Assembly (NCBI GenBank): GCA_000934665.2
Contig: KZ538005.1
Coordinates: forward strand, 62,169-126,000
Length of the DNA stretch: 63,832 nucleotides
Source of the DNA: Catajapyx aquilonaris
Lineage: Eukaryota
Reading direction: 5' to 3'
The stretch's first letter is position 1, and each line of letters opens with the position of its first letter. Shown one piece after another: positions 3,001 through 60,500 of this stretch. A program made the position numbers and the translations under genes. The notes under the pieces were generated by a model, which was not told the DNA's origin, did not search any database, and saw only the letters and a list, made by a program, of their open reading frames with translations.

Positions 3001-6000
3001 AGGGTGTTGGAAAGGCATGCGGCAGGTTCGGCAGTGAGTTTTCCAGCCAAGTAGCAGGCGCCAGAGATCAATATCCCGATTAAGACAACACGGAATGGCC
3101 AGGGGAACATTAGAAAATCAATGGAGCACTTGTAATTGTCAAGAAAGCGGAGTGAGGATTGGAAAGACATCTTTCTTTGGGGCCGAAATGAAGCGTGGTT
3201 CCCGCTGGAGGGGAGGAGGAGGAGGGGGAGAAGGAGAAGGAGGAGGACACAAAGGAGACTTGATTCGCGATGGAGAGCCACTGCAGGAGAAAAAAGGAAG
3301 AAGAAGACATGACGAACGGGTTCCAAGTTTTCTATGGGGTCCGAAAAATGGGTCGCCATCAATTAGGGGATCTCTTGCTTCCAATAACCACTCACATCGC
3401 CATTTTTGCCCTGGCAAAAAAAAGAGAGAAAGAGGGGGGGAAGGGACACCCTACATGTACCAGCCAGGGCAAGAAAATAACAGACTGGCCAAAACTTCCA
3501 GTTAGGGCCTTACCAACAATAACGGTTATTATACTGTAGCATGAAACAAATTAGCCTATACTAAATAATTATTTTCTCATAGAGTAAAACCAGTTGTTTG
3601 ATGTCGAGCATTGACGAGTCTATTGTTATTTGATAAAACCTGACTTTGCTCCTTCTGATATGGATCAACAGTGTGTGGCATTTATGGCTGGGTGACAGGC
3701 AAGTTTGTAGCCAGTACCTTTCTGTTCGTCTTCCATAGTACACCAAAAAATTTTCCTCCAGCACTTCTTCCTGATGGAAGGTTCACATCCTAACAAGCCT
3801 GTTAAACTTTATAGTCTTCGCGTTACCAAACGCTAGTGTAGTAAAATCTGGCGAAGGAAGCCGCTTGTGTGTACAGCTCCCTTGTGAAAGGTGAAAGGAA
3901 CGGGGGGGAGGATAGGTCCAAAAAAGATGAGGGGCCAAAATGGGGGCAAAGACTGAAATGGGATTTGTACCCCCCTTCTGCCCCCACTCCCCTATTCAAC
4001 CCCAAGCGTCTAGCGATAGCAATAGAGCCCCCCCCCCTTCTTCCATTTTTTCTTTCTCTCATCCTGATGAGAAAAGAAAATGACTTTTGCTTTGCTTAGG
4101 CCGCTCTTTAAAATGCTCGGCAGACTATGAAATTACAGGGTACGCCCAGAAGTAAGGCGAATCGACTGTTTGAATTCTTGCACTGCCCTCATGTATTGCT
4201 CTCTCCAGACTCACATACCCCAGGTGAACGCTCTCCGGATGAATAATTTAGTTGGGGTCCAGCCCTGCTGCCAGATGGCAGCACGTATCTATTGTAGGGA
4301 CGTGAGAGGGCAGGAGATGGCAGTAGTAATTGCCCCCATGGGCAATTTTGCTCCAGAATGACTGGTTACATGGCAATGTTGGAAAATGATCTTACTTTCT
4401 GCAAACATGGGTAACCTTTGTAAAGTCATGCTTTCACCAACTTATACTCGTCAAGAAATTTGACCCCTCCTGTAACCAGAACCAGTCCTCATTAGTGAAT
4501 TCTCCTCAGTGACCCCCCCCCCCCCAATAATTCCGCATCTGATCGATCAGTGATCAATTTGCGCCCAGTTTTCGCGCAATATTAGGAGCGCAAGCCCGTG
4601 AGAGCACATTAAGAGCAGCCTGCGTGTTGCAGTAGTAGTTAAGCTGGGTTCAAAAGGAAGTAGCAGAGGGGAACAACCGGGCCCATTACGGAACTAGAAC
4701 CGCGGCAAACATTTGCAAATTTTCTCGGCTACCGGCACAGAGAGAGAGAGGAAAAAAGTTGGCGATGGCGCTGTTGTTCCTTTCAGGATTTAATTACCTG
4801 GAAACGAGCTGGTTGCTGGTTTATTCAATTATTAGCCTCCTCTCTAAAACGCCGACTTTCTATTACGGACTCTAATTATACCTGCGATATCGTATTAATG
4901 TGAAGGTCTTTTACCAATGGAGGCTGAGAAAGTTTTGGGAGGTAAATGCTAGAGGAGGAAGAGGTTAGAAAGTATTGTCCGATCTGGGGGCTGTGCTATG
5001 GGAATATATTGGAAAGCGATTTATCGGGGATGAGGAAGGAAAGCTCGGAAAATGCGCTGTAACATCCATGACAACGGAGTAATAGCATCATCCGTCAGGT
5101 GTTACACTAGAGAGGTTTTTTTGAGAGCATGATATTTAAAGTTTACTTCGCAAATGGGTATTAATAAAGCGTGCCAAAACTTGTTAGGCAAACGGATTTG
5201 TTTTTTGCATACAGGGTGCACCATAAGTTGAGCTCCTTTTGGCGTAATATATTTTCAAATAATTTGGTCAGCCCTGCCAGTGATAGGCCCTCTTCCTCCA
5301 TTACCTGCCTTAAAATTATGTGGTATCCCTTACATTTCCGCCATTCCATTGTGCCCCCATTCATTCGGACACCCCATTGTCGAGGGAAACACAATGGCAA
5401 ATGATGCAAAACCCACCGCATTCTCTCACAGATGACTACAGGTCAGAGTCAGAGGTGAATGAGCAAGTAATGACACCCACTACTTGAACAGAAATAAAGG
5501 ATCTGGGATGGGAATACCCCTGGAAGCCACCCATGTAAGGGGGGGTCCTGGCCTGGCTACCAGGCTGCCTGCCTGCATGGAATTTGTCACGAATGCACTT
5601 TGGATCCCCCTGGGCGCACACCGGGATCTCGATAAATCAAGCCAGGCCCGTGCAATAATCTGGCCAGGAAAAAAGTTAGTCGCGGGTATGAACAGCCAGC
5701 GCCAGGCTGTAAAGGGACGCCGACCCATTGTTGTATGGAGGGGGGGCACCCCTTCCAAACAGGGAAATAAGGCTAATGATGAAGGGGTGGGGGGTAGAGC
5801 TGGCACGCTCCTATGGCACTTTCCATCTGAGCAGGTCACGCCGATCCTTTCAAAGAATCGGAAATTATGGCAGTCAGGTGAATTATGTTTGTGCCATAAT
5901 GCATACGGTGGGTCATTTATTATGGGGCACTCTGAAGCCATGTGTTGAAACGTGCTGTATCAAGTGTGGCCATGTTGCTCCAGTATAACAGCTGACACCA

Positions 6001-7770
6001 TCATGTGCTGTAGTCCATTTTTGGTGTGAAGCTACGATATGGGGGATATTGAGGCCATTTGTGCAACGGAATTGTCACACAAGAATGAGCGTGGGAAGTT
6101 TTGTCAACACGGAATATATGTTTCAGATATAATGAGCAAAAACACGAGAGTTGAGTCTGAATCAGTATATATAGGCAGAATAATGTTACGGCGGTATGAG
6201 AGAATCGAAAAGAGTAGCCTATATTATTGCGATATGTATTCAATTTTTTTAAAGATGCCTATACATTGTCGGCATACAAGTGAAATCCACCGTCAAAAAA
6301 ACCGTTTTGAAATAATCCAAATATTTGACCTTACACTTTCTTAAAGTCCTTTAAATCAAAGAACGAGCTTACGTCACGTTCAGTCTCGCCTGCAACCGGC
6401 TCTTCCCTCCTAATATGTCCCCTAATCGCTCTGCAAGCATGGTATAGCATGCTCACTGTCAGAAAACACGACTAATGTGACGTCAGATCGTTCTCTCAAT
6501 TAAAGGATTGTACATTCTAGCGGAAGACAAAAAATCCTGGCTTGCTGGCTCATTACTATACGGACTTCACCAGGAGACAGAATATAATAATGCTACTTTG
6601 CTCACACCTGCCAAACTTTAATTGGGCGGATTTCACTAGTCTTTTAGTCCGACGATATATTTTGAAGGTTCAAGGAAAAGGAGGTCGAATTGGGGGGGAG
6701 GGGGGACGATATCATGCTCCAGTTAAATTATAATTGTGTCACGAATTACCAGGACGCGTCGTCCAAAACTATTGTTTTCCCCTACAGTATGCTACTCTTG
6801 ATTATGCACCCTGCTACATGACCTACTTGGTAATGGCAGTTTGATTAAGTTTAATAAATGTAATTATGTTTAGCTGGATTAATTTAATCAGTGTTGAAGG
6901 AATAAGATGTAGAATTATGAGAGTAGAATTTTTCTGATTTTGAGATATGAGTTTAAATTGACAGTTAATAAGAATATTTTGTAACATGTCTATCAGCAGT
7001 ATAATTTGACCATCGGAATCTTGGCTGGGATGTGACTGATCATTTTGAATTTCAGGTTTTCATCTCTATTTTTTCTTTGAGCAATCAATTTATTGAGGTC
7101 TAATAATATGAACATTTTAAAGATTCTTTATGAGCGACGGTATTTTGATCCGTATTTCGGTCGCACATCTTGGATTTAATAATGGAGCAGCTTCAGTATC
7201 AATTCCACGCATTATTTTCTCACACAAATACTGATCCATCATTGCAATATGAGACCTTTTTCTCAAGATTACCACATGCTAAAATATCGCATCTTGCATA
7301 CAATTTAACCATCTTTCACGTGAAATTTGTACTCATGTTACATCATTCTCATCAAGTTAGTATTCAGGCCATCGTTATTAGTTATTTAATTACATCACAC
7401 TCGTATGGGGTCTTCTTACGTGGAAAGGTATGTAGATATCTGAAATCTCCTAGCGACGCCAGGGCATTCCTATGATGAGATTTTATCAACATACGGACAC
7501 CGTCGCGTCGCATTCCGTGTTGTTTTGCTAGACATTCCGGTACTATATTTTCGTTCGGTGGTAGTCTTTGCATGGGACTGCCAGGATCCGAGGATATGAA
7601 GATATGAAAGGTATACCATCACGACTCGCCATTACGTCGGAATTCGGCATTTTGTCTTGTTTGGCTTGTTTACGTCTACCTTGTTTTCTGTAGACGCCCA
7701 AATATTCTTCTCAGTGTCCTTCTTACCATACTTGCGGACACAAGCCCCGAGTGAAAAGTGCCTTCGAACC

Positions 7771-7950
7771 ATGGAGTGTGCTGATCTTAGTACCCAGCTG
7801 AAAATCAAGCTCATTGCTGAGCTGATCCGGAACAGCCTTGGTTCCCTCCGCCATGAGTTCAACGACCGTCATCGAATCTCCAAGATGCGCAACATGATCT
7901 CTCCTCAGAATCGTCAGGTTGACCCCGAAACGCAAGAGGGCATCCGCAAG
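7771..7950 (+). CDS. Orphan gene A exon 1 (60 codons, MECADLSTQLKIKLIAEL...ETQEGIRK)
   Basis: ATG in ACCATGG context at 7771. Open frame to donor AAG|GTCAGT at 7950/7951, phase 0. TCAGT Inr-like motif at 7711. Confidence 0.7.
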
Positions 7951-8269
7951 GTCAGTTGATAACTTCCTGTGTCGTCCCTGTGTCATTAACCCGCCTTTTC
8001 CTGACGACTAATGCTCTTTCTACTAGCTCGAGTTACAAAGGGGTATTCAGCATTGTACAGCATGTAGGTCAAGAAACTTGACTTCCCTGTTGTCAGGTGC
8101 AGATGCCAATACCCTTTGTTCCAGGGACTTGGAGACAATGCTCTTTTTTGCATACTAGACATGTCTGCATCATTGTCATCTCTATTTACGATACTCGGTC
8201 GTGTGAACCTGTTTGTCCCATATTTTCTTGCGTTTTTAAATAAAAAAATTATATAATTTTGTTTTTCAG

Positions 8270-8599
8270 ATTGTGGAAGAATTTGATAGCATCTTAAAGA
8301 GGGGACTGGACTCTCTCAGTAAGCTGGTGGCACTCCTGCGGTCCCTGCGTGACCAAGAGAGATTCACCTATGAATTCCGATGCATGGTCATCCTGGGGGT
8401 CGTTCGCTACCAGGAAATTTTTGGCGAGGATGAAGCGTCCGGGGTTCAAAGTCAGGACCTGACTTGGCGTCTAATTGGTTCCTTCGTAGACGCCACCTTG
8501 CGTACCGATGCTGAAGACATCACCCCGGATATGATCTTCTGGGACCATGACGACAATCCGATGGACTTCGATTTCGACTCCGATGATCAGTCCCTCTAA
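8270..8599 (+). CDS. Orphan gene A exon 2 (IVEEFDSILKRG...DFDFDSDDQSL*); spliced product 169 aa with acidic C-terminal tail
   Basis: Polypyrimidine acceptor TTTTGTTTTTCAG|ATT at 8269/8270, in frame with exon 1. Stop TAA ends at 8599. AATAAA at 8676-8681. Confidence 0.72.
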   Translation: MVEEFDSILKRGLDSLSKLVALLRSLRDQERFTYEFRCMVILGVVRYQEIFGEDEASGVQSQDLTWRLIGSFVDATLRTDAEDITPDMIFWDHDDNPMDFDFDSDDQSL

Positions 8600-8675
8600 A
8601 TCAGATCATCAGCCAACAACAATTTGCACGAGTGTTTTTTTGCTTTACATGCACCTTTTGCCTTTGTGAAACAAG

Positions 8676-8681
8676 AATAAA
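8676..8681 (+). promoter_or_regulatory. Polyadenylation signal of orphan gene A
   Basis: AATAAA 76 nt after the stop codon. Confidence 0.5.
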
Positions 8682-8833
8682 CTGGTAAAAAAATTGGGGT
8701 TGCTTGCACCGGAATTGGATTGTGCACATATTTTTACCGGCGCCGAAGAAACTGTGTCGCGATTCCACGTAATGCACGAGTTCGTTGCACCCACTGAATA
8801 CCATTGTGAGGGTGATACTTGATAAACTTCTAC

Positions 8834-8840
8834 TATATAA
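8834..8840 (+). promoter_or_regulatory. TATA box of orphan gene B
   Basis: CTATATAAGG about 95 nt upstream of ATG 8932 and downstream of the gene A poly(A) signal. Confidence 0.5.
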
Positions 8841-8931
8841 GGAGGCGATGAGACCTACTCTACAGGCAGACAGCAACAGCGATTCATCCTAATCGAACCT
8901 CTCCCCGAGCTTCACTTCCAGAAGAATCAAG

Positions 8932-9105
8932 ATGGGATGTGTCACTGGGATGGGCAAGTACCGGTTGATTTTGATGACGAAAACATTCAGCAGCTGCATC
9001 GAACAACTTCTGAAGATCATGAACATGAGAGCCACCATGCAGCTTCAAGTGGATGACGCCGCCAGGACTGGAATAACTCCCCACAAGTTAGGTTGTATCC
9101 AGCTG
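8932..9105 (+). CDS. Orphan gene B exon 1 (58 codons, MGCVTGMGKYRLIL...HKLGCIQL)
   Basis: ATG in AAGATGG context. Donor CTG|GTACGT at 9105/9106, phase 0. Confidence 0.7.
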
Positions 9106-9162
9106 GTACGTATATCCGTGGACATCCTGGACATTAGTGGAGTCTAATGAAGGTCATTTCAG

Positions 9163-9426
9163 CTGCGTGAAACCATCGAAGAGACAGAGGACGACGTGTC
9201 TTTCGACCTTCGTCATCAGGCAGCCATCGTGCGTGAGCTAGCCGAGCAACGTCGGCTGGACCACGCCTTCAAGAGGGTCCTCAGCTTCTATGTCATGCAC
9301 CGTAGCCTGCAGCTGACTGGCTACACCATAGAGGAGTATTTGATTATTCGACTGATCGACGTCATGAGGGATATCAAAATGCATTCCTTCAAATTGGAGC
9401 CGTTCTTTGCAGCCCTGCGAGGTTGA
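9163..9426 (+). CDS. Orphan gene B exon 2 (LRETIEETEDDVSFDLRHQ...FFAALRG*); spliced product 145 aa
   Basis: 57-nt intron 9106-9162 with CTAAT branch-like motif (9144-9148), in-frame stops and acceptor CATTTCAG|CTG. Frame continues into track ORF 9196-9426. AATAAA at 9470-9475. Confidence 0.72.
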   Translation: MRETIEETEDDVSFDLRHQAAIVRELAEQRRLDHAFKRVLSFYVMHRSLQLTGYTIEEYLIIRLIDVMRDIKMHSFKLEPFFAALRG

Positions 9427-9469
9427 GAAGTTGAAGAAAAGTTGTGCGATGCTTGTATGCAGGAATGTG

Positions 9470-9475
9470 AATAAA
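9470..9475 (+). promoter_or_regulatory. Polyadenylation signal of orphan gene B
   Basis: AATAAA 43 nt after the TGA stop. Confidence 0.5.
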
Positions 9476-10787
9476 ATTTCAGACAATCGCCCACAAATTG
9501 ACCTTATTATTTTCCATTACGTCGTTTTCAGGTCAACAATACAAATAACAGCGTCGAGTATTCTGATTTTAGGACCGGAACATCTGCGATGCTTGCCCCA
9601 GTTTCATTACCACTGTTAAAATTGCCTGGCATTTAATAACGTCATGGCCTCTACATCAGGCACGCGTTAATTCCACTATACCTTCGCATTGTCGGACACT
9701 CAAAAATGCAGCGTTGACAAAATAAATTCCACCACTACAAGACCTGGCAGTACCATACTCGTGTTATCAGCACGACCTTGTACAATACCTGAAAAATATG
9801 TGGTCGTCACACTGTGTACTGAAAATAAGCTGGAACCTGTCAAATTATTAAATTGATTGTCACGCATATAGCGTCAATCAGTCCTTTATATTCTGAGCGG
9901 GCAACAATGCCCCCCCAATTATCAAGCGAGTTTTTCGCGAACTATTCCCAACTGGAACATGCATGACGCTCTGAAGTGAAACAATAAATTGGGACAATGC
10001 GTTTGGAGGCATCTTTTTTCATCGCGACTAATAGCACCGGAGGCGTTAATTTGGGTTGCGAGAGGGATAAATGAGAGGCTTGAATGCGGCTGTCATGGCT
10101 GGTTCCACAGGAATATCATAACTACTAGTTCAACTAGAGCAAATGCCGACTCCGAACTAATTCGAATATCATTGTGCTAAAAAAATAGCTTAATCCGGTC
10201 AGCACAGCTTCACCGAGGAGAGACGCTATTGACCGGAAGTGATGCAATTTCACAGTCCTTTCAAATGCGTGTCATTGGTATTGGCATTTATGACGTTACA
10301 TGCGTACGGGACATAAATTACCATGCTAATTATCCAGGAATAGGACCCACCAAATCGATATTTTGGGGGGTGGTGGAGAAAAAGTTTTGTACTGAATAGA
10401 AGGGGGAGTATAAATAATATGCGTATTTTTAATCAAGTGAAAGAGTCGAGTGGTCAGTATGTGATATTATACACTATCATACGAGCGCGGTTTTGCCGCA
10501 ACATGACACATGTCAGCTCTTATACCACATATGGCTACCAAATGGCAATATCACACTTATTTTTCATATTCCAGCTATAAACTTCATTATCGATTCAATT
10601 CTGCTAACTGGGCATGTAGATCATACATAATGCGATTTTCTACAATATTTTTTATCCTCTCTTACAATATTATTCTGTCATACATATTGCATACCTAGAA
10701 GTGATATCATTTTAAATAGCTAAAATGTGATCACTCAGTTTGAGTGAAAATATTTCATTTCAGTGCAGTGGTTGAATGATTTTCACT

Positions 10788-11199
10788 AAAACGAGTGGGA
10801 GTCAACTCATGTGGAAGAAAGAGTGAAAATCACTCGGAAATATTATAGTGCAGTGGTTTCCAACCGGTGCGGTGGGTCGCGGGAGGTCGCGAGCCTTGGT
10901 TTAACTTTTTTTCCCCTCATTTTGTGTCAATTGAATAATTTTTGCGGCCGTACAGAGTGTATGTTTTCTGGAAAATTGGCAGTTGTAGTGGGGGCTGGGG
11001 AGGGGAGGAAAGGGGGGGGGGGTCGCACATTTATGGAAACATGTTTAGGGGGTCGCAGTTGGTAAAAGGTTGGAAACCACTGTTATAGTGATACCGATAT
11101 CCCGGTGATATCAATATATCAAAATATTTCGAGTGTTTTTTCGCTCGATTTGAGTGATTTTCACTCTTTCTTCCACTTGATATGACTCCCATTCGTTTT
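10788..11199. mobile_element. Older fold-back/MITE-like element with ~48-bp inverted arms, hosting a hAT MITE
   Basis: 10788-10835 (AAAACGAGTGGGAGTCAACTCATGTGGAAGAAAGAGTGAAAATCACTC) is a near-perfect reverse complement of 11152-11199. Confidence 0.7.
10851..11082. mobile_element. hAT-superfamily MITE (232 bp)
   Basis: Perfect 15-bp TIR CAGTGGTTTCCAACC / GGTTGGAAACCACTG. Perfect 8-bp TSD TTATAGTG (10843-10850 and 11083-11090). Internal GGTCGC subterminal repeats. Confidence 0.92.
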
Positions 11200-14100
11200 G
11201 AGTATTGTTTCCAACTTCCATCAATTTTTCTATTAAAAAAAGTAGGTGTGCCTATCTGGCCATCTTGCCTCTTGGGTTATGCCCTTTTTCTTCCTTCCCT
11301 TTTTCTCCAATTGGACTCCGGCCCACCCTCCTCCCCCGCCCTTCTTAATCGAATTCTGTACCCACTTGAGATTCCATACATGTTTTCTGGCATCGGCGCA
11401 GCCTGAAATTAAGATGGAAAGGAGGCCCGCTCATCGCTCTCAAGTGGGGCCCAGGCTGTAGCTTGCATTTAGCAGCCTATTGAAAAGGAACAGAAGGGTG
11501 CTTCACTCCTGTATATATGACTCTCACCCTAGCAACCGGCACAGGTTGGACATTGGTTCGTCATGTTAGGTGGCTAATATCTGCTCCGGACATGTTGACA
11601 GTTTGACCGCATCGGGCGGTAAATGAAGCGATTTTTTGGGGGGGTTGGGCGTGGGGTTGGGGGGATAGTGGGAGGGTCGTTATTTTGGTTGACCTGTGTA
11701 GCGCCCTACAAGTCAAAGCTGGAACCGATTGTGTCATGGGAGAGTGATGCTGCACTTATGGGTTAGGAAACAAACATGGGGGGCGAAAAAACAAAACTCT
11801 GACAGTGAATAAAGGGCGGTAGAGTTTTAAATATTCACGGGGGCGTATAGGATCAGAAACATTGACAATTTTGACAATGAATCACTTCCATCTACTGTAT
11901 GGGGGTAAATATGAATGTCAGAAAGAGATGTTTCGTATACATAGAGTCCGAAGCGGATTCGCGGCATAAAATGGCAGGAATTATAGCTACACATTCAAAG
12001 AGTTTGACTGCCGTGACATGAATCATGGTGTTGAATGACACAATGACTATTTTGGCTTTTCGACCTGTTCGGCGTGTGAAATGAGAGCAGAACAATGTAG
12101 GGCCCTACTGTAGTTTTATTACAAAGTGCAAAATGGTACGATCTGACGAATATTATTACACCAAGCATCTTACTTTCATGATGCATTGAACATCTATACC
12201 TTATTAAATGTCACAAATCAAAATAATGTCGTTTCTATTTCTATACCATCTGCATGGCCGAAAATACCTGGAAAAGAAATATCGTGGCAATAATTCTTTT
12301 CATACTTGTGATTGCGAATATAGGCAAGAGATTCATGGCGCTCATTGCCGTCCCAGAATGCAATGCAGGGTGCGACAAAGCGGCAGCAATGGTCATTCTC
12401 GGGCGAGCGAAACAAATGACAATAATGATGGGTAAACTGCGAGGGGGCACGCCGTCCTGTTGACACGCCCAACAACATATTGCTAGTCGTGATTAGAGGG
12501 CGCATGAATTTGGTAAAAAGGACAAATATTGCGGGATTATCAGCTCGACTTGACGTGTCGTCAATGTTGCCCCCAGTGTCAACACAAAGGTCGCTGGGCG
12601 CCGGCTCTGTTTGAGTAAATCAAAACGGTGTCATCGACTGGCTCCACATTACCTACCGACCCACCTTTCTGCTAAAATAAATTTCGAATAGTTCATATCG
12701 AATGGGCAAGTTACACTTTGTGTAGGCCTATATAAAATAGTTTTTGAAGACTATATACTGGAAAAATTTGTGCCCTTCTAAACAGCACCAAATGCGGGCA
12801 AGGATGGAAGGGTGCGCCACCATGCTTCCGCCCGCTCCCGCAATTGGCGCTGCTTGCGAGGGTACAAGGTAATTTATTTCCAGTAGGCCTAGTTGTATAG
12901 CACAGTATATAGGGCTAAGTTAGTTAGAAACACGTAGCCTAGTGCATGCCAGCTAGATGTATTTTCTAGAACCGGATAGAGATACGCGATCATGATACGG
13001 ATTTGTCAAATCCTTCCGGATTTTCAAGTTTCCTGGAGTAATTAAGGAGGCAAAACATTTTTCATTGGGTCGTATAAGCCTTGACTCTTAAATGTCACGC
13101 TCATCAAGGTCCCTGCACTCTAGTAGTGTGCAGGACATCTCGAACTAATAAAATCCGGCGAATCCCCGCCCGGATTCAATAGAAGAGCGCAGACAAAAGA
13201 AAGTTTTGTAATCTCGGCATTATAATCCGGAGGGGGGGGGGGGGAGGAAGAAAAGGCAACCTCTTTATGAAATCCGTAAAGACCCAGGACTTATGATCTG
13301 AGCGTATGGGTCGTAATCCATGTGGAATTACTGCTGGTATAAGGTCGCCGGAGACCAGGTCCGGAAAATCCCGTTTCACCTTGGCACAATTAATATTTCT
13401 TACGCTGTACAAAGTCCGTCCGATATGTAACTCTCCGTGGCATGTTTGGCGAAATTTGTGCATCGTAAATACGGTATAGTTTATAGCCTACCACGAGGTC
13501 ATGCTGCTGGTGAAGCCGCACATTCGCATTATGTTGCGTGCATTATGTGTAACGTCCGACACGCCTTCACGTTAGTATGATACATTGGCTGTAGATTCAT
13601 CCGTGTTGCTAACATGGCCGACGTCGTATTTTTACTTCTGGCGGTCGTAACAATGGTTTATCAAGATCAGGTGTCAGGTTCGGATTCAGGGGAGCCTTGT
13701 CCAAACATATATTTTTAACAAGTCATCTGATTCTTTATCATCGTGCATGTCTGCAGAGACGGTATCCCTACCGGTACGCAAGAGGTCAAAATAGCATTGG
13801 CATAAGTATCTACACTAGTAATCAACATGTCCGCCACCGTATCGTCGCACTGAAGCAGAGACACCACCGGTTATCCCGTGAACTAGTCTCCATCATATTA
13901 GCCTGCATAGTACACACTTAGTCTTGAGTTGTGAACTACTTAATCCCCTCTAAACCATGTTTATGCCCCCCCCCNCCCCCCCCCCGAATCATCCGTACTT
14001 GTTCATTCCCGCCCTGAATCAACCAGTTGATCCCCCTATGGCACCAGTTGGTACCTCGAAGCAGCCACACCCTGCACATACGAAAAGAAGCGACAACCGA

Positions 14101-51145: not shown

Positions 51146-51577
51146 CTAGCGGCAACAAGGCGAAGTGGCCCCGCCCGAATGAGCATCTCCCCGGTCGGTC
51201 ACCGACACTTCAGAGCTTTCTGACACGCTACGATGCCGGTCTGTGACCTGACCTCTGCCCCCCGACCCTTCGTCCTCGGACTCGCTCATGTCGATCTCCG
51301 GTTCGGGAGATGACTGTGGGTGACCGTCGTCTATGTCACTGTCCGGGTAATAGTCGGCAGCCGCGGCAGACGACGTGGACGGTTTGGGAGGCCGGAAGGC
51401 GCTATTTTCGCCGCCCATCTTCGGGAGGTCGGAGGTCGGGCAGGTAGGCGGGGGGCCTGGGGATCCAGGGGTGGTACCTGGAGGCGGCGTGCCAGGCGAG
51501 CCAGCTAGGGCGAACGGCTTTAAGAGGTTCATGCGTTGGTGTCGCCTCCATTTGGCTCGTCTGTTGGAAAACCAAAC
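51146..51577 (-). CDS. eyg: eyg exon 6: homeodomain helix 3 ([20 protein letters not shown]) plus Pro/Ser/acidic C-terminus
   Basis: Acceptor CCTTTTAACCTAG|GTT. In frame with track ORF 51146-51532. Ends in TAG. Confidence 0.93.
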   Translation of the reverse strand, partial: VWFSNRRAKWRRHQRMNLLKPFALAGSPGTPPPGTTPGSPGPPPTCPTSDLPKMGGENSAFRPPKPSTSSAAAADYYPDSDIDDGHPQSSPEPEIDMSESEDEGSGGRGQVTDRHRSVSESSEVSVTDRGDAHSGGATSPCCR

Positions 51578-54500
51578 CTAGGTTAAAAGGACACCGATTT
51601 TAGAACCCGTTCTTGTCACAACAACAACACAGGGTAGTAGGAAAAGAAACTGGGTGGTCACTCACCCGTGGAAATTATTGCGCATGTGTAAAATGAGCAC
51701 TAATTTGCAAATTGCAGGGCAGGCAAGCAATATTTCCACAGGCGTGTAATTACATGGGAAGTGCAGACTTTTTACCCACCAGGAAATCAACCCAGCATGC
51801 AAAATGGGCATCAAATTGTGGGAAATTTGTCTGGGGAAGTATTGTTTCGAATGGAAAGATGGACCCACCTGAACTCTGGCCTCGGAGAGGTTGGTCTTGG
51901 AGGCCAACCGCTCGCGAGTGTTGACGCAAGGATAGTGCGTCTTTTCAAACTCTTTCTCCAGTTCCTCCAGTTGTTCCGGGGTGAAGGTGGTCCGGTTCCT
52001 CCGGAACTTGGGCTGGTCACTACCTCCGATGCAACTTCCGGGACCCGTGCCCTCTGACCCAGAAGTGTCATCTCGGGCGTCGGCCTCTGTCAAAAAATAT
52101 ATGTTGCTATCAGTTACGCTCGGTTTCACACCCCACGAAGTGACGTACCAGGGAGTCGAGCGTTGAGACCATCATTGTTGGTTGTGGTCAGCGACACTGG
52201 TACGTCGTTATTGGGTGACGAAGCAGCGGCTGCGGCTGCGGCAGCCGAAACTGCGGCTGTTGCAGCCGACAACGATGCGCTGTGGTTGGGTGGTACCAGG
52301 GGTGACCAAAGTGGGGTTGCTGGCCAAGGAAAGGCGTATGGGTGGTACAGGCCGTAGCCTGCAGCCCGGGCGAATTCCGCTGCTGCTCTTTCGGCTGCTC
52401 GGTTACGCAGAATGCGGTTGATGCTGCTCACACTAGGTGCGGTGTTGTTGGTGCACACACCTGTTTAAAAGATATAAGACTCACCTGAGACTAAGTAAAA
52501 GGAAGATCATGAGGTTTAATTTTTTTGTGTTGAAACTTGCATGCGCTATCAATCAGCACAAGTTTCTCCAGTACGTGTGAGGAATTGTGTGGAATTCGTG
52601 ATATCACGGATTGTGCTCGTGACGGCTTGTGAAGACATTAAAACTGCTAAATGGTCCTGAGAAGGATAACTTGTTACGATTGTGCAGAGTGCAAGGTTGG
52701 TATGTTTTCACGCTCATTTGATTAGTACTCATATTTTGCCAAACATTTTGAGCAAGATTGCAGTACCGGCGGTACGTTCTGACAAAATGAAAGTGTGACT
52801 CGGGGTCAGCCATGCTCCATATACAATCACTACCATGCTATTCAGTGTCGCGTAGGTGAAAAAGTGACCGGTCCAGTCGGTATAATCGATTTGGTTCAGG
52901 CGTTTCCTTCTCACCGGACACACAGGACCAAGGCACCCAAACCTTTTGTTGTGGACCCCCCCCCCTACCCACCAACCTCCCAACCCTATAGAGTGTACAT
53001 ATATTTTTTCGGCGCCGCCTTGCGTCTGTCCCCCATTAAAGCGTGATCCCGGCCTTGGAAGTGGGTACTTTTGTTACAGCTCTCGAAGCAAAGAGGATTA
53101 ATTGTTGCCTGCATTTCCCTAGCCGGGATTAATTTCATTACGGAGAAAATGAGGTTTCTTTGTGGCAAAGGAGAAGCTCATTAGTTTTGATTAATGGACC
53201 CCCGACAGGCCGTCGACTGGGGGCGAGAAGGTGAGTTGGATTCCAATAAAAAATACTATTTGAGTCTAGGAACCAGAGGTACCCAACAGGTAACCCGACT
53301 GATTTGTATTGGCTAAAAAAGACATTAATCTCCAACCAGCCGCTTCCTGAAATCGGGTGTAACTCGGTGCTAATCCGTCCCAAGAATTGTGACCTTAAAA
53401 CACCGTTAAGATTTTCACGTGGCCAATTAACATATGTAAGGTCATCCGAAAGTACCCGTCTTGAAATAACCACAATGCTCTTCCTATTTCTCCGTAATTG
53501 AAGTGCCACACGGATCCGGTTAAATATTATTATTAGGTGCAGAGGTTGCGAAAAATCTCTACACGGCAATTCCTTGTCTCCACTAGTTTACAATTTGGCT
53601 TTTTTTCTATGCCGCTTAATTGCCAAGCCGGTTTAAGAAGCTTATGTAAATCTTGCAGATGTTTATTGGAATGTGCTCACATTTTGCGGAATGAGTTTTT
53701 CCGGTGGCGAAACTACGTCGACGGAATGTTAATGCGTGTAATTGAAGAAATCATTTAGCAACTCGAGTGCTGCTAAAACGCTGTACCAAAAATCGGACAG
53801 AAGCAGGTTTTTTCCCACCTTCTTCACCAACAGAAAATCGCGCCTGATCTCAACTCGTGACATCTAGGATGATGTGGTAATAAGCCTACCGTTTCGTGGC
53901 ACGGGATACTTCATTACCAATCCGACCAGAAAAAATAAGAGAAGAAGGGTACAGACATTCGGGTCACGTTCGTAAGCTTGATGGAAAGGATACCTGAAGA
54001 GAAACCCTCCTACCACCTTTTTTTGCGATTTGTTTCATCCTCTGGTGGTGAGGAGAGATGGACATGCGCACGTCTGTTGTCACAAGACGGGCCAGAAAAT
54101 TTGTAAATGCCATGATTTACATACACAGAAACATAAGTTGTGAGTCTGAGTGACATATGGGGAAAAAACTGTTCCAAAAAAACTAGCTGGGTGAATTCCT
54201 GCACTAGCTACTCTTTTTTATCTAGTTTTTAAAAGTCACTCTGTGTAATGGACGTGTCATTATGTGCAATCAAAGGATGTGAGCCGTGCTTTATCTTTGC
54301 TTAGCTGCCCATGTGCTCTTAACCAAGGTGATGAATGAGACTACTGGTACCTGCTTAAAATTTGTTAGCGCGTAAAATTGGGTAACAAGCTGGCACGTTA
54401 TCACGAGTACGGTGTCTCATAAATACGGTAGTCCTCGTCATTCGACTCGTAATAATTAAAATCGTAAATCAACTTGCGAGTCAGCCCGTCAAGAGTCGTG

Positions 54501-57500
54501 CAAGTATAACCTTTATGGAAGCGGATCCAACAGTGCCATGAAAATTGAAGCAAAATAGTCGCATATGGTATGACTCGGCTCTTCAAAATTCCAAATACTG
54601 TTTGATCATCAATAAAAATTTGCCACCCGGTTGTGTTCAACTTTTTTATCCGCTCATCATTTCGGTGAGAACCTGCACTTTGCATGATTGCGTTCCGGGT
54701 AAAAACAGGAATCAGGCTTAATCACAGGGAGTTAATTCAAATAGCAAATCATACCCATCACTGTTTACACTCATTCCCTGGAGGACTCGCTTTAATAATA
54801 ACCCCATGATTGACCATACCTGTGATTATATTTTACTGCCCTTTCAGGGTATTAAATCAATTTGTACCCAGATTTCTGTCACGAATGTAAATTCGAGCTA
54901 GCAGTTTTTTTGGAAATATCGACGAATATTTCTTGCTTCCTTCTGAATTGACTGCTTACAACCAATTTGGCTGTCAATTGTAGCCAATGAACCGCATTTT
55001 TACATTCGGCATCTGTGTAACTTGAAGGCTCGAAGCGAAAGGCATCCCTATGGCTACATTCCCCCAATTTTTTTGAAGGCAGAACCTCTCTCTTTCCCGG
55101 CGTCTTTGGTATCACCCCCCTCACCTCCAAGACACCCTTTACCACCGAAACCAGCAGCCGTTCACAGGGTGCTAATGAAACAGAGTCTGAACAGGTTTTT
55201 CCTCCCAGAACGGGAACCTGCTACCGGCCGGCACCTTGTGCGCATATTATTGTCTTGCACAAGAGGGCCTGGCGCTTGAGTTACGGCCTGGGCTTATTAT
55301 GTTTTTCTTGCCAAATGGTCGAGTCCGGGGGTAGCTTCCACTCCGTGCTACGTGCCGTAATTTGCCTCGACTCTTGCCCATAAGAAGCGCATAATTATAT
55401 TGACGTGTGAGGATGGGCTGGTATGGAGCACGTTCAGGTTCCAGTTATTTTTTGTGGGTATATCTTCAATTTTTTTTGAGGGAACGATATAGCTTGGAGG
55501 CAGGTTTGGTCTTATAATGTGGCTACAAAGATGCCCTCTGCATGTAAGGCTGTCACGAGGGAGGTGAAATGTGATGCTGACCCAGTTGTCCACCGTTAAG
55601 GAGATTATCTCCTAGTCCATCTTTGGGTACGTCGGTTGCACCTCCGACGGTAACCTGTAATTTGCTTCCACAAAAAGGGGGCAACGACTCAATCTTGGCC
55701 TGCTACTGGGTGGTTCGTATTTTTAGCTTGCTCTACTATGGGCGAGTTGCTCATAAAAATAGCATAGGTTATGGAAATGATGACGTGAAAGTGCCCTCCC
55801 AGAAGGCAAGGTCTTGACACATAATTGCTCAGGTTCTGCACGTAAAGGCGGTGCATTGAATGACATATTTCAGATTAAGTATGGATAGTACAAGGTTTCA
55901 AGCGCAAGAAACACAATTGGTTACAAATAACATGCAGAGAAAGGAGACAGACGTATTGTGTCCCTGCCAGAATCTGGCCTAAACTGTGTAATGAACGCCA
56001 TAAGTCATGTCTGTGCACCTAATTATTGTCGCCTTAACTCAAGACCGGATGGATCTGGTCACACATGGGCAACAAGCACAAAAACACCCGGCGTGTAATT
56101 TGGCATGGTTAATGGTTACGTTTGCCAAATGGAGCCAACTTATATTTTTTGCGTGTTCAAAAGATGCCAGTGTCAATGAGGTGTCCAGCAGCCCTTTGGG
56201 TACGCCGGTACAGAACTGACAATGATTGCGTGCGAGTTCACCAATGTTCGGGGGGCTCCTGATAAAAGCTTGTGGGACCCCTGTAATTGCAGCCTCCCCT
56301 TCGATCCCCCCTCACGCAAAGCTTTACATGGGGAATGACAATAGTTGAGTGACCTCCATGAACCGACGATTCAGATGCTGGCACTTATGTGTCCACCTAC
56401 CTGCACGAAGCTGACCACCACAACAGGTGGTTGGCGTTCTAGCATATGTGTCACAATATAATCACACTGGGGGGGGGGGGACACTGATTCAGACAATATG
56501 TGGTGGACAAAAGAAAATGGACTGATTTGGTGCTTGGGCATTGTCATAACTGGTGCGAGCTTTGTACAAAACAATGGCTATCTTGACGTATGATTATTAT
56601 TATGGAGTATGACTCGACTAATATCGTTGCACATAATGCGAATATTTCAATTAAGAATTGTTATGATACTTACGCTACATGTGACATTCTGGCTAAAGTC
56701 CCTAACTGCAGAATATAGGGCAGTTAAAAAATAGTTAGGATGTCCTTGTCTCGCACATAATTATGGCTATATATATGACCGTACAAGTTACTATCGCCCG
56801 GAATTATGTAAGTGTGCCACTTAAAGCATATGAAATTTATAAACGATGTATTTAAAAATTCGCTGCATTTACTAACATACACCACCCGTGACAAGAGCGT
56901 TTACTTTACGAACGTCCTGACATTAAGTGACCCATAATGTGGTGTAATACTTACTAAAGGCCGGATTGGTCTCTCCTAATTCCTGCGTTTATACCAATAT
57001 CATGAGAAGCCGAGTGATTACACGCATTTCACCATCAGGCTTAAGTTGTTCCGAGGCCATGACGCTGCAAGTAGTGCCCAAAGGCATCTGGTACGACTTG
57101 GCGTAAACTTTTCTCACGATGGCCTAGACACATCACGCAATTCGAGCAATTGGTCCGTGACCAGCGGTAGTAACGTTGCGGTTATATATATTTTTTATCC
57201 CCTTTCGTAGTCATGTTTGATCTAGCCCCAGCACGCTTCTAATCTGCACTTACCTTCAGATATTAGCCGCTCTCGTATCTCCCAGGCGAAAATGGTCGGA
57301 TTCTCCCGTTTGTATTGCTCAATTTTGGCCACGACGGCAGGTGTGGCCACCTTTGGTTTGCTGCCTCCGATGATGCCCGGTGGCCTCAAAGACCCAGCTG
57401 TAAATAACATTGCGACACCCTTATTACGACTACTCAGGAACACTTATGTCTTATCATCTGCTATATTACAGTATTTTAGTCTGATTTCGAAATGAGGCTT

Positions 57501-60500
57501 GTTGCCAGAGTCCTGATGAAATACAGTACATTGCTACTGTATTTTACATGAATATTTGAGCTTATAAATAATATTTTCAATACATATTAATATGGGGAAT
57601 TGCTACAGGTACGTCCTAAACGGAATGAAACTTTTGAAACTTGTTGAAAAATAGCAATATTATATCAGAAAAAAGTTTAAAGTAACACCAATAATAATTG
57701 AGGAGTGGGAATACCAAAGGATCTAAGTGGCAGATAATTAAAAATTGAGATTCTGCGTGCCAAATGCTCTATGTGCCCTGCCTAATCCCATGCAGGAGGC
57801 TCAAAGTGCCAAAAAATTCATTCGTCGTACCGGTATACTGAAGGTATCCCACATGTAAGCATGGTCTTCTCATTTGAAATAAACTCAATTATCTCTCTTC
57901 AAGATTTTTGGGACTTGGAGTCTTTGGGATTTCCACTCTTCAATTATTTATTATTACTGAGAAATTGCACAGACTGCATACATTTTCCAACCAGCTTTTC
58001 AATTACACCGTAAAAAAAACGGTCCCGTCCACACTCATTTGCGCTGCGCAATTAAGACAACGCCTCTCTCGTTATAAACCCGCCATATAATATCGAGAGG
58101 CTATACTTTGCTCACATAATATGTGCATGCTCATATGTACAAAAAAAAAAATCGTTTTGAAATATGAAGTGTACCTAGTCCTTCCTGATCGGCAAGAATG
58201 TGCTGAATTTTCGGCTTTCGCGGAGAAAACTAACGCCATATTTTTTATTACCTCCCAACTCCTACACCCTGCTCATGCTCACGTAATTATGATGCAGGGT
58301 ACCTGAAAATTTTTGGATGGGAGTGTCAATCATGCAGTGGGCATTTGAAGACCAGGGGGGAACCAGTAGCACTTCCTGCAATCAATCTGGATTGCCAACC
58401 AACCCATGCGGTGTGCGTGCGGCACGCAACCTTTCAATGTGTTTTCACTTGTGTCCGCAGAGCCGGTAACAGAATGCCTACACATTCAGGTGATGAGGTA
58501 ACTTAATTGCACATTCCGGTATTCCAGGATTCCAGTCTAAAATTGCGATGGATAGGGCGCGATTCTAGGCGATTTCGGGCGATTTCGGGCATGTTCGAGC
58601 AATTTCGGGCAATTTCAGACGAACTTACCTAGAAGTTTGGTGACTGCTCCCTGCTGGGAGAGCATGTGCTGTGCCAGGTCGTAAGGTCGTAAGCCGTACC
58701 GTGACAGCTCCAGAAGACGGTGCTGACTGGCGTTGAGGGGATTGGAGGCGCCAGCGGCGGCCGCGGCTGCGGCGGCTGCTGCGGCGGCTGAGCCGTACAG
58801 TTCGCGCAACTGGGGCGGTACTGGGCCTAAGAATAAACAAAACATCAAATGGGTATTAGAAGGAAGCTGATGGTTGACCTTGCTTAGGAGGATATAAATA
58901 TTGCATAACTCGTTGCTAATATTGGAGACCACCCTTTTGCAGTGAAAGGCGCAGTTACGATGTGTTGCTATATGGGCTTTGCCTGAGGGTGTGCTGAATG
59001 CATCTACATTTTCCCCTCGAGGTTTTCAATTATGCAGCACCTGAACCACTTTATAAATTCCACAAGGTCTGCCAGCGAGTGTCGGAAGGACACAAATGAG
59101 GAGAATGTTTATCGAAAGATTCATAATAATCAGGTGGTAATATGATGTCCCAACCTACTGCCTAATGCCCTTGCAATAATATTTGGGGGGGAAAAATATA
59201 TAGTAAAGCGTGTAGTAAACAGGATGATGAGGTGCCTAAGTTGATGGATTACTTGCTCCAGTTGCGCATGCGCATTCCCACTGGTAGGTCCCAATACATA
59301 CGCTAGAGTGGAGCAGGTAATCCATCATATTTATCCACCCTGTAATCAGCATCTATTTAATTATAATTTGTACATGTAAGACTATGAAATTGATAAAATA
59401 CTTTATATACGTAACATTCATTTTATGTTGCAAATTATAGTCAACACATGCTGATAATAGCTATTTTAAATAAGGACTACCGCATATTTGTGAAAAAAAC
59501 CACATATTCAGCCTGCATCCTTGTTGCGGGCTACACGTGAAAAACCGAGTAGTGTGAATTGTGCCAAGTTCATCCAAAAGATTCACACGGTGAACCATAA
59601 TAAAAACTGTTCCTGTTCTTGAACTTGATCTGACATTAATCACGCGATCAGTCGTCATAATGGGCGCCTAATGACACATTTTGTTCATTGATTTCCTGGT
59701 TCATGCTCACAAAAAAAAATTAAAATCACTGCTTCTTGGAAGGACATTTTTTTTTCCTCTCCTTATTTTCCCTCAAATTTTTTACCACCCCCATTTTGCA
59801 TGACTTAGTTCACATGCTCGCTCGGCAAAGACCGTGATTAAGAGATCACGACGCGGTCACTTTCATTCGTCTTTTTCCCCTCAAAAAGCGCTTTTTCCCA
59901 TCGAAAGAAAGATGATCGAGGGCCTTGTAGAATCAGATGCAAAGTCCAAAGATTGCTGGAGGCGCGCTTTGCCTCTCGGGAAGTTGCTCCTCAACCAGCA
60001 ATTTGCACGAAAGCCAACCCTGGCTCTGTACTTAGCCATTGTATTGCGTTTTCCCAACTTCTACCATCCCCCCCCCACCTCCCACCCCACCTCCTCGACT
60101 CATTATTTACGGGAGGGAAGACTCAAATTCGACGTCAGATTTTGCCTTAAGAACATGGCTTGTGTGCACCGTGTGTGTGCAGAAACACACAACTCTCTTG
60201 TGGCCCGCGGGGTATAAGCTTCTCCAGGAGGGTTCATCAAACCTTTTGACTTGTGGCCGGAAATTCCGGATCCTATACGGATGCGCAGGCAAGATTGTTG
60301 GAGGATTTATTGCCGAGCGATTATGAAAACATTGTTCGGAATATTTTTAACATTAGGCCGGTTATATTATAAATCCGAGTTTCTTTTTGGAAAATTCTTA
60401 CTTTTGGTTTTCGTCAACAATGGTTGCCATAGCAATTCTTGTTATAACCGAGGTTCTAAAATATGACCAGGTTGATAAAACCCGACCTAAGGCATCATAT

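Follow-up and report, generated by a model that had tools for sequence, protein, structure and literature searches.

The DNA analysed here is a stretch of 63,832 nucleotides (nt) of contig KZ538005.1 from Catajapyx aquilonaris, hereafter the window, and its subject is a pair of neighboring genes on the plus strand, designated gene A and gene B, whose predicted products are 169 and 145 amino acids (aa) in length, respectively. Each gene comprises two exons joined at a phase-0 intron, and only 332 bp separate them. Both are very probably genuine coding genes, and it appears an even prospect that they are lineage-restricted arthropod genes for small helical proteins, probably old tandem duplicates. 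The elements of the two genes are as follows.

7680-7693, plus strand: acceptor-like site CTTGTTTTCTGTAG, a pyrimidine tract followed by TAG, 78 nt 5' of the gene A ATG
7771-7950, plus strand: gene A exon 1, ATG at 7771 in the strong Kozak context ACCATGG, 60 codons, donor AAG/GTCAGT
7951-8269, plus strand: gene A intron, 319 nt, GT..AG, phase 0, 40% GC
8270-8599, plus strand: gene A exon 2, 109 codons and TAA
8676-8681, plus strand: gene A poly(A) signal AATAAA, 77 nt past the stop codon, read from the sequence
8834-8841, plus strand: gene B TATA box TATATAAG, canonical, within the 332-bp spacer between the genes
8863-8864, plus strand: CA initiator-like dinucleotide, ∼30 nt downstream of the gene B TATA box
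8890-8892, plus strand: in-frame stop codon preceding the gene B ATG
8932-9105, plus strand: gene B exon 1, ATG at 8932 in the strong Kozak context AAGATGG, 58 codons, donor CTG/GTACGT
9106-9162, plus strand: gene B intron, 57 nt, GTACGT..CAG, phase 0, containing an in-frame TAA
9163-9426, plus strand: gene B exon 2, 87 codons and TGA
9470-9475, plus strand: gene B poly(A) signal AATAAA, 44 nt past the stop codon, read from the sequence

The original prediction had joined four fragments into these two two-exon genes, and its coordinates, Kozak ATGs, GT-AG introns, and AATAAA signals agree with the sequence base for base; the TATA element it had placed in the spacer is also present, as TATATAAG, which we take to be a TATA box by its resemblance to the consensus. 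The gene A acceptor, TTTTTCAG, stands behind a strong pyrimidine tract, and the gene B intron has a branch-like CTAAT 15 nt 5' of its CAG acceptor. These splice signals are at least equal to those of the homeodomain intron (CAG/GTGGGT ... AACCTAG/G) in the Pax-type gene described below. The frame of gene A is open upstream of the ATG as far as 7600 and, together with the acceptor-like site, suggests that an additional exon, either coding or non-coding, may exist at the 5' end of the gene. Reading of the sequence upstream of gene A found no TATA box, but a TCAGT initiator-like motif lies at 7711-7715.

The composition of the four exons sets them apart from their surroundings. All four have a GC content of 49-53%, with GC at the third codon position (GC3) of 0.62-0.66 and at the second (GC2) of 0.32-0.40; values for positions 1, 2, and 3 are 0.57/0.35/0.65 in gene A exon 1 and 0.41/0.40/0.66 in gene B exon 1. 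GC3 in the neighboring homeobox exon is 0.68. GC content is lower, at 38-44%, in the two introns, the spacer, and the flanks, and in each of the four exons the coding-type pattern over the three codon positions ends at the splice sites. When the 388 stop-to-stop open reading frames (ORFs) of at least 58 aa on both strands of the window are ranked by codon-position GC periodicity, the ORF of gene B exon 2 ranks first and that of gene A exon 2 second, followed in third place by ORF 8297-8470, the antisense of gene A exon 2. Non-coding sequence dilutes the signal in the ORFs that contain parts of the two first exons, and these come 16th and 35th. The minus strand has further antisense ORFs, 92-109 aa long, either facing the exons or situated between them, at 7726-8007, 7989-8315, 8604-8888, and 9241-9516. 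None of these four has a Pfam match, and antisense ORFs at this locus are most simply shadows of the composition of the coding strand.

Searches for relatives of the two products used the exon pieces as queries. Pfam returned no family for any of the four exon products at E ≤ 10, and a word-indexed search of 5.8 billion proteins found no relative of exon 2 of either gene. A HMMER scan (phmmer) with gene A exon 2 against 1.84 billion representative sequences gave a single match, P0001, at E 4e-6; this bacterial protein of 1432 aa contains six repeats, and the match was dismissed as due to chance, its score being summed over them. In the ESM Atlas the best scores were 0.87 and 0.78, under the level of 0.9 taken as a lead, and all matches were bacterial or viral; a metagenome scan likewise found no relative, and Rfam had no match in the window. 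By sequence, the PDB yielded chance rows or designed helical proteins only (dTor_6x35L, 2L6HC3_6). The match to a designed protein at E 3e-6 is again a sum over repeats, single stretches all falling below the passing level, and it was set aside as implying no ancestry shared with natural proteins. The statement in the original prediction that no family was recognised is thus borne out by Pfam, protein, and PDB searches, and genes A and B are orphan, or taxonomically restricted, genes in that they have no detectable homologue or domain in the libraries searched. The meaning of this absence is limited because the protein database seems to lack the proteome of the host and probably those of its close relatives.

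The relation between the two genes was examined by direct alignment of their products, which are ∼20% identical. The Smith-Waterman score of 49 is reached by 9/2000 plain shuffles, by 8/2000 shuffles that keep the hydrophobic pattern, and by 10-28/2000 that keep local composition, for an overall p of ∼0.005-0.014. The best ungapped block in exon 2 scores 35 with 8/30 residues identical and lies at offset 0, that is, in register with the intron, which follows codon 60 in gene A and codon 58 in gene B; the runner-up among ∼170 offsets scores 21. At offset 0 a score of 35 is obtained in 0/3000 plain, 21/5000 pattern-preserving, and 3-11/5000 local-composition shuffles (p ∼0.001-0.004), and at any offset in 14/500. 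For cognate exons the score is 35 in exon 1 and again 35 in exon 2, compared with 18-22 for the four non-cognate pairs, and BLASTP with a word size of 2 aligns the two products at E 0.035. Helices with similar boundaries, predicted in both exon 2 products, were also counted toward paralogy. Taking these alignment statistics together with the shared layout and adjacency, paralogy is the somewhat favored relation, provided that both genes are genuine.

The by-eye alignments offered with the original prediction fare unevenly. That of exon 2 corresponds to the block of 8/30 identities above and exceeds chance. For the N-terminal 33 residues, the 6/33 identities exist, but the ungapped score of 15 is at chance level (189/3000 shuffles), and the alignment of the exon 1 ends, with a score of 14, does not rise above chance either (280/3000).

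Several results weigh against reading the pair as old tandem duplicates of one arthropod lineage. When gene B is reversed as a control, its Smith-Waterman score with gene A is 42 (true pair, 49) and the ungapped exon 2 score is 30 (true pair, 35); because these controls come near the true scores, part of the likeness between the products is due to shared helical composition. The best exon 1 block lies at offset -10 (2/1000 shuffles at any offset), in conflict with the N-terminal alignment proposed earlier. Default BLASTP gives no alignment between the exon 2 products at E ≤ 100 and, for exon 1, a match of four residues alone at E = 6. The profile-profile comparison proposed as a check is not significant, as hhalign of full-length A and B gives P 0.091 and a probability of 0.6%, with P 0.27 for the reversed control. 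Cross matches between the genes in tblastn over the window (E 6.8 and 14) fall among chance matches. Finally, no orthologues of either gene were found, and the locus shows no variants. Within the window, a search for DNA similarity between the genes found none, and tblastn found no third paralogue. The old duplication under purifying selection that was originally proposed is therefore only weakly supported: intron register and cognate-exon scores speak for homology, whereas default BLASTP, hhalign, and a reversed control that scores 42 where the true pair scores 49 speak against it.

The same evidence bears on the view that both genes are genuine but not paralogous, being two independent young or fast-evolving orphans, arisen for example de novo from intergenic DNA, whose likeness reflects only the composition shared by amphipathic helices. 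The non-significant BLASTP and hhalign results, the high score of the reversed control, and the lack of DNA similarity would all be expected of such a pair, and most orphan genes in ants are reported to arise in intergenic regions (PMC3590893). However, this view leaves to coincidence an exon 2 block in exact intron register, cognate exon pairs that outscore all non-cognate ones, and a common layout in which a first exon of 58-60 codons is followed by a phase-0 intron and a second exon. The strong codon-position bias, moreover, would fit established genes better than very young ORFs. Independent origin is considered unlikely, although it deserves weight.

If genes A and B are instead old tandem duplicates, one duplication would have given rise to both, after which the phase-0 intron position would have been kept while the sequences drifted to their present ∼20% identity.

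A different doubt is whether the locus is coding at all, as chance ORFs and signals, a non-coding transcript, or a decayed pair of pseudogenes might mimic two genes. Long ORFs are not rare here, 56 in the window being of at least 110 aa, and the language-model recognition value of gene B exon 2 is 2153, under the mark of 2300 that 91/100 proteins of known families reach. Whole gene models are a different matter. The window was scanned on both strands for a Kozak ATG, a first exon of at least 150 nt, a GTnnGT donor, an intron of 45-500 nt, a YAG acceptor with at least 5/10 pyrimidines, a second exon of at least 240 nt, and an AATAAA 10-130 nt past the stop codon, and the scan returned genes A and B alone, plus an internal ATG of gene B at 8950. 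Among 200 shuffled windows, three contained one model each (mean 0.015), so that such models are ∼100-fold rarer there; the criteria were chosen with both genes already seen, which tells against the force of these figures and makes them orders of magnitude. A stricter version of the scan retains gene A alone in the window and finds no models in 60 shuffles, and when the Kozak and poly(A) requirements are dropped the window has 11 starts, one of them that of the Pax exon, versus a mean of 1.2 over 60 shuffles. The non-coding alternative would also have to account for a codon-position GC pattern that recurs in 4/4 exons and stops at their splice sites, for the two highest periodicity ranks, and for start, splice, TATA, and poly(A) signals that are all where expected. 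It is regarded as decidedly unlikely, and in all likelihood both genes encode protein.

The predicted proteins differ in charge. Gene A encodes an acidic product (pI 4.65), in which a tail formed by residues 131-169 contains 13 Asp or Glu and 1 Lys or Arg, whereas the gene B product is basic (pI 8.49). In neither protein does any 18-residue segment reach the hydrophobicity of a membrane span, and no signal-peptide-like start is seen in either on reading. In gene A exon 2, helices are predicted at residues 2-11, 16-27, 34-51, and 61-77, with a predicted local distance difference test (pLDDT) value of 52, and in gene B exon 2 at residues 2-50, 56-71, and 79-85 (pLDDT 59). The helical bundle originally envisaged is consistent with the helices predicted in exon 2 of both genes, at low confidence; these predictions cover the exon 2 products only and were made without alignments, a point to be set against the structural part of the interpretation. 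The libraries searched yielded no matching fold.

The gene B product begins MGCVTGM, which fits the N-myristoylation pattern (in PROSITE style) of Gly2, a permitted residue 3, and a small residue 6; in the translation Cys3 is available for palmitoylation. The product of gene A has Glu at position 2 and lacks Gly2. Acylation of the gene B product at its N-terminus is possible but falls short of an even chance, the motif being short and common, which counts against it. On the preferred interpretation, the proteins would each fold into a non-secreted bundle of about five helices. The gene B product would be myristoylated and palmitoylated through its Met-Gly-Cys start and so sit on a membrane, and the gene A product would be soluble, its acidic, aromatic-rich C-terminus forming a disordered tail for docking to other proteins.

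The two genes might in addition be linked components of one module, whether as a heterodimer or as a selfish pair of the toxin-antidote kind, an idea that could add to the preferred interpretation rather than replace it. Adjacency, possible paralogy, and opposite net charge are all that point to it, and tandem duplicates are usually mere duplicates; a complex prediction for gene A exon 2 (residues 1-82) with gene B exon 2 scored 0.00, which counts neither for nor against it. Such a module is improbable. A more specific form of it is highly improbable: a new helical-bundle family of the arthropod lineage acting as a two-part module, in which the acylated, basic gene B product would recruit soluble A at the membrane, the acidic, aromatic-rich tail of A would engage a further partner, and tight linkage would preserve the matched pair.

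Copies and variants of the locus were sought in contigs of four DNA runs from one sample, which may be the source of the assembly. Their contigs span 6000-10878 in one piece at background depth (27, 24, and 20 in three of the runs). Within this span 6668-10675 is single copy, its depth of 27 in run X1 being that of the background, and in these contigs it has no variant and no second copy at least 85% alike. Run X5, which carries the same species label, covers three repeat bins only and nothing of genes A and B. High-copy repeats flank the single-copy stretch at 6334-6667 and 10676-11000, where the following elements lie.

6276-6667: high-copy repeat, depth 420-840 versus 27 in run X1, with 16-nt inverted arms at 6276-6291 and 6625-6640
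10788-11199: element resembling a miniature inverted-repeat transposable element (MITE), whose 48-nt inverted ends show 92% complementarity and are separated by 316 nt

The 6276-6667 repeat is a place where many contigs meet or terminate. At 10843-11000 the contig depth climbs from 27 to several thousand, indicating that the MITE-like element belongs to a very high-copy family. The repeat at 6276-6667 and that at ∼10.8 kb are of different families, and genes A and B are not enclosed by any pair of direct or inverted repeats. The IMG/VR collection encodes no relative of either gene, by a method that reaches close relatives only and in a collection with few arthropod viruses. The suggestion that a virus-derived insertion or a mobile element carries the pair as cargo could draw on the close packing of two small genes, each with a promoter of its own, in a stretch that is poor in genes and lies between high-copy repeats. 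It is not supported and is barely credible, since the locus is single copy, its flanking repeats are different elements, the IMG/VR search matched nothing, both genes have spliceosomal introns, and the exons alone deviate from the surrounding composition, whereas the spacer and introns do not. Elsewhere in the assembly of the window there are two single N bases, at 13975 and 16326.

The neighborhood bears on the identity of the host. Genes A and B lie ∼42 kb from a Pax-type homeobox gene on the opposite strand, whose parts are these.

51146-59025, minus strand: Pax-type gene
51665-52171, minus strand: homeodomain exon, Pfam E 2.4e-16, 59.7 bits versus a cut-off of 22.9
52129-52464, minus strand: end of a paired box, 18.2 bits versus a cut-off of 22, a plausible partial match
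58615-59025, minus strand: ORF with a paired-domain-like stretch, seen by eye only

The homeodomain is split by its classic internal intron, with the donor near 51870 and the acceptor near 51578. The Pfam scan covered 150 of the 152 ORFs of at least 84 aa in the window, and among these 150 the homeodomain exon alone passed its curated cut-off, three further weak rows remaining below theirs. With a single curated pass, the region is gene-poor and resembles the deserts around developmental regulators. The closest relatives of the Pax-type gene are arthropod 'Pax-6-like' proteins: among the best 71 relatives of its C-terminal exon, the 67 that are named are all arthropod (chelicerates, a centipede, springtails, and insects). 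Identity to the best 71 is at most 60% over stretches of at least 41% of the query, and only two stretches, both short, have higher identity (100% over 14% and 85% over 19% of the query). That the named relatives are all arthropod and, outside those two stretches, no more than 60% identical indicates that the host is an arthropod whose own proteome seems to be missing from the protein database.

If confirmed, lineage-restricted tandem duplicates at this locus would be two genes overlooked by homology-based annotation and would constitute a small new protein family of one arthropod lineage. They would be of use in annotating the genome and would also provide a test case of old tandem duplicates drifting past the reach of sequence searches while an intron position is kept. 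No long-standing question is opened by the pair, and nothing at the locus suggests an unusual mechanism.

The comparison with known systems places the pair within familiar categories. Like tandem duplicate pairs with a conserved intron, genes A and B share a strand, lie 332 bp apart, and have a phase-0 intron and an alignment block in register with it; unlike such pairs, they are only ∼20% identical, give non-significant results in standard tests, and lack DNA similarity. Src-family kinases and G-alpha subunits are membrane-anchored proteins that are dually acylated at an N-terminal Met-Gly-Cys. The gene B product starts in the same way, MGC, but the rest of it is dissimilar, and the gene A product is without Gly2. 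The likeness to the designed proteins dTor_6x35L and 2L6HC3_6 is one of idealised amphipathic helices, and these are not relatives. The closest setting is that of arthropod orphan genes, which are reported to account for 10-30% of a genome's genes, with duplication among their sources (PMC3590893). Genes A and B resemble the orphans described there in encoding short proteins with few exons, in having no homologue or domain, and in their intergenic setting; they differ in standing in tandem, whereas ant orphans are little clustered, and in being known from sequence alone. The tandem orphan pair is a further case of the known lineage-specific genes, not a new kind of system.

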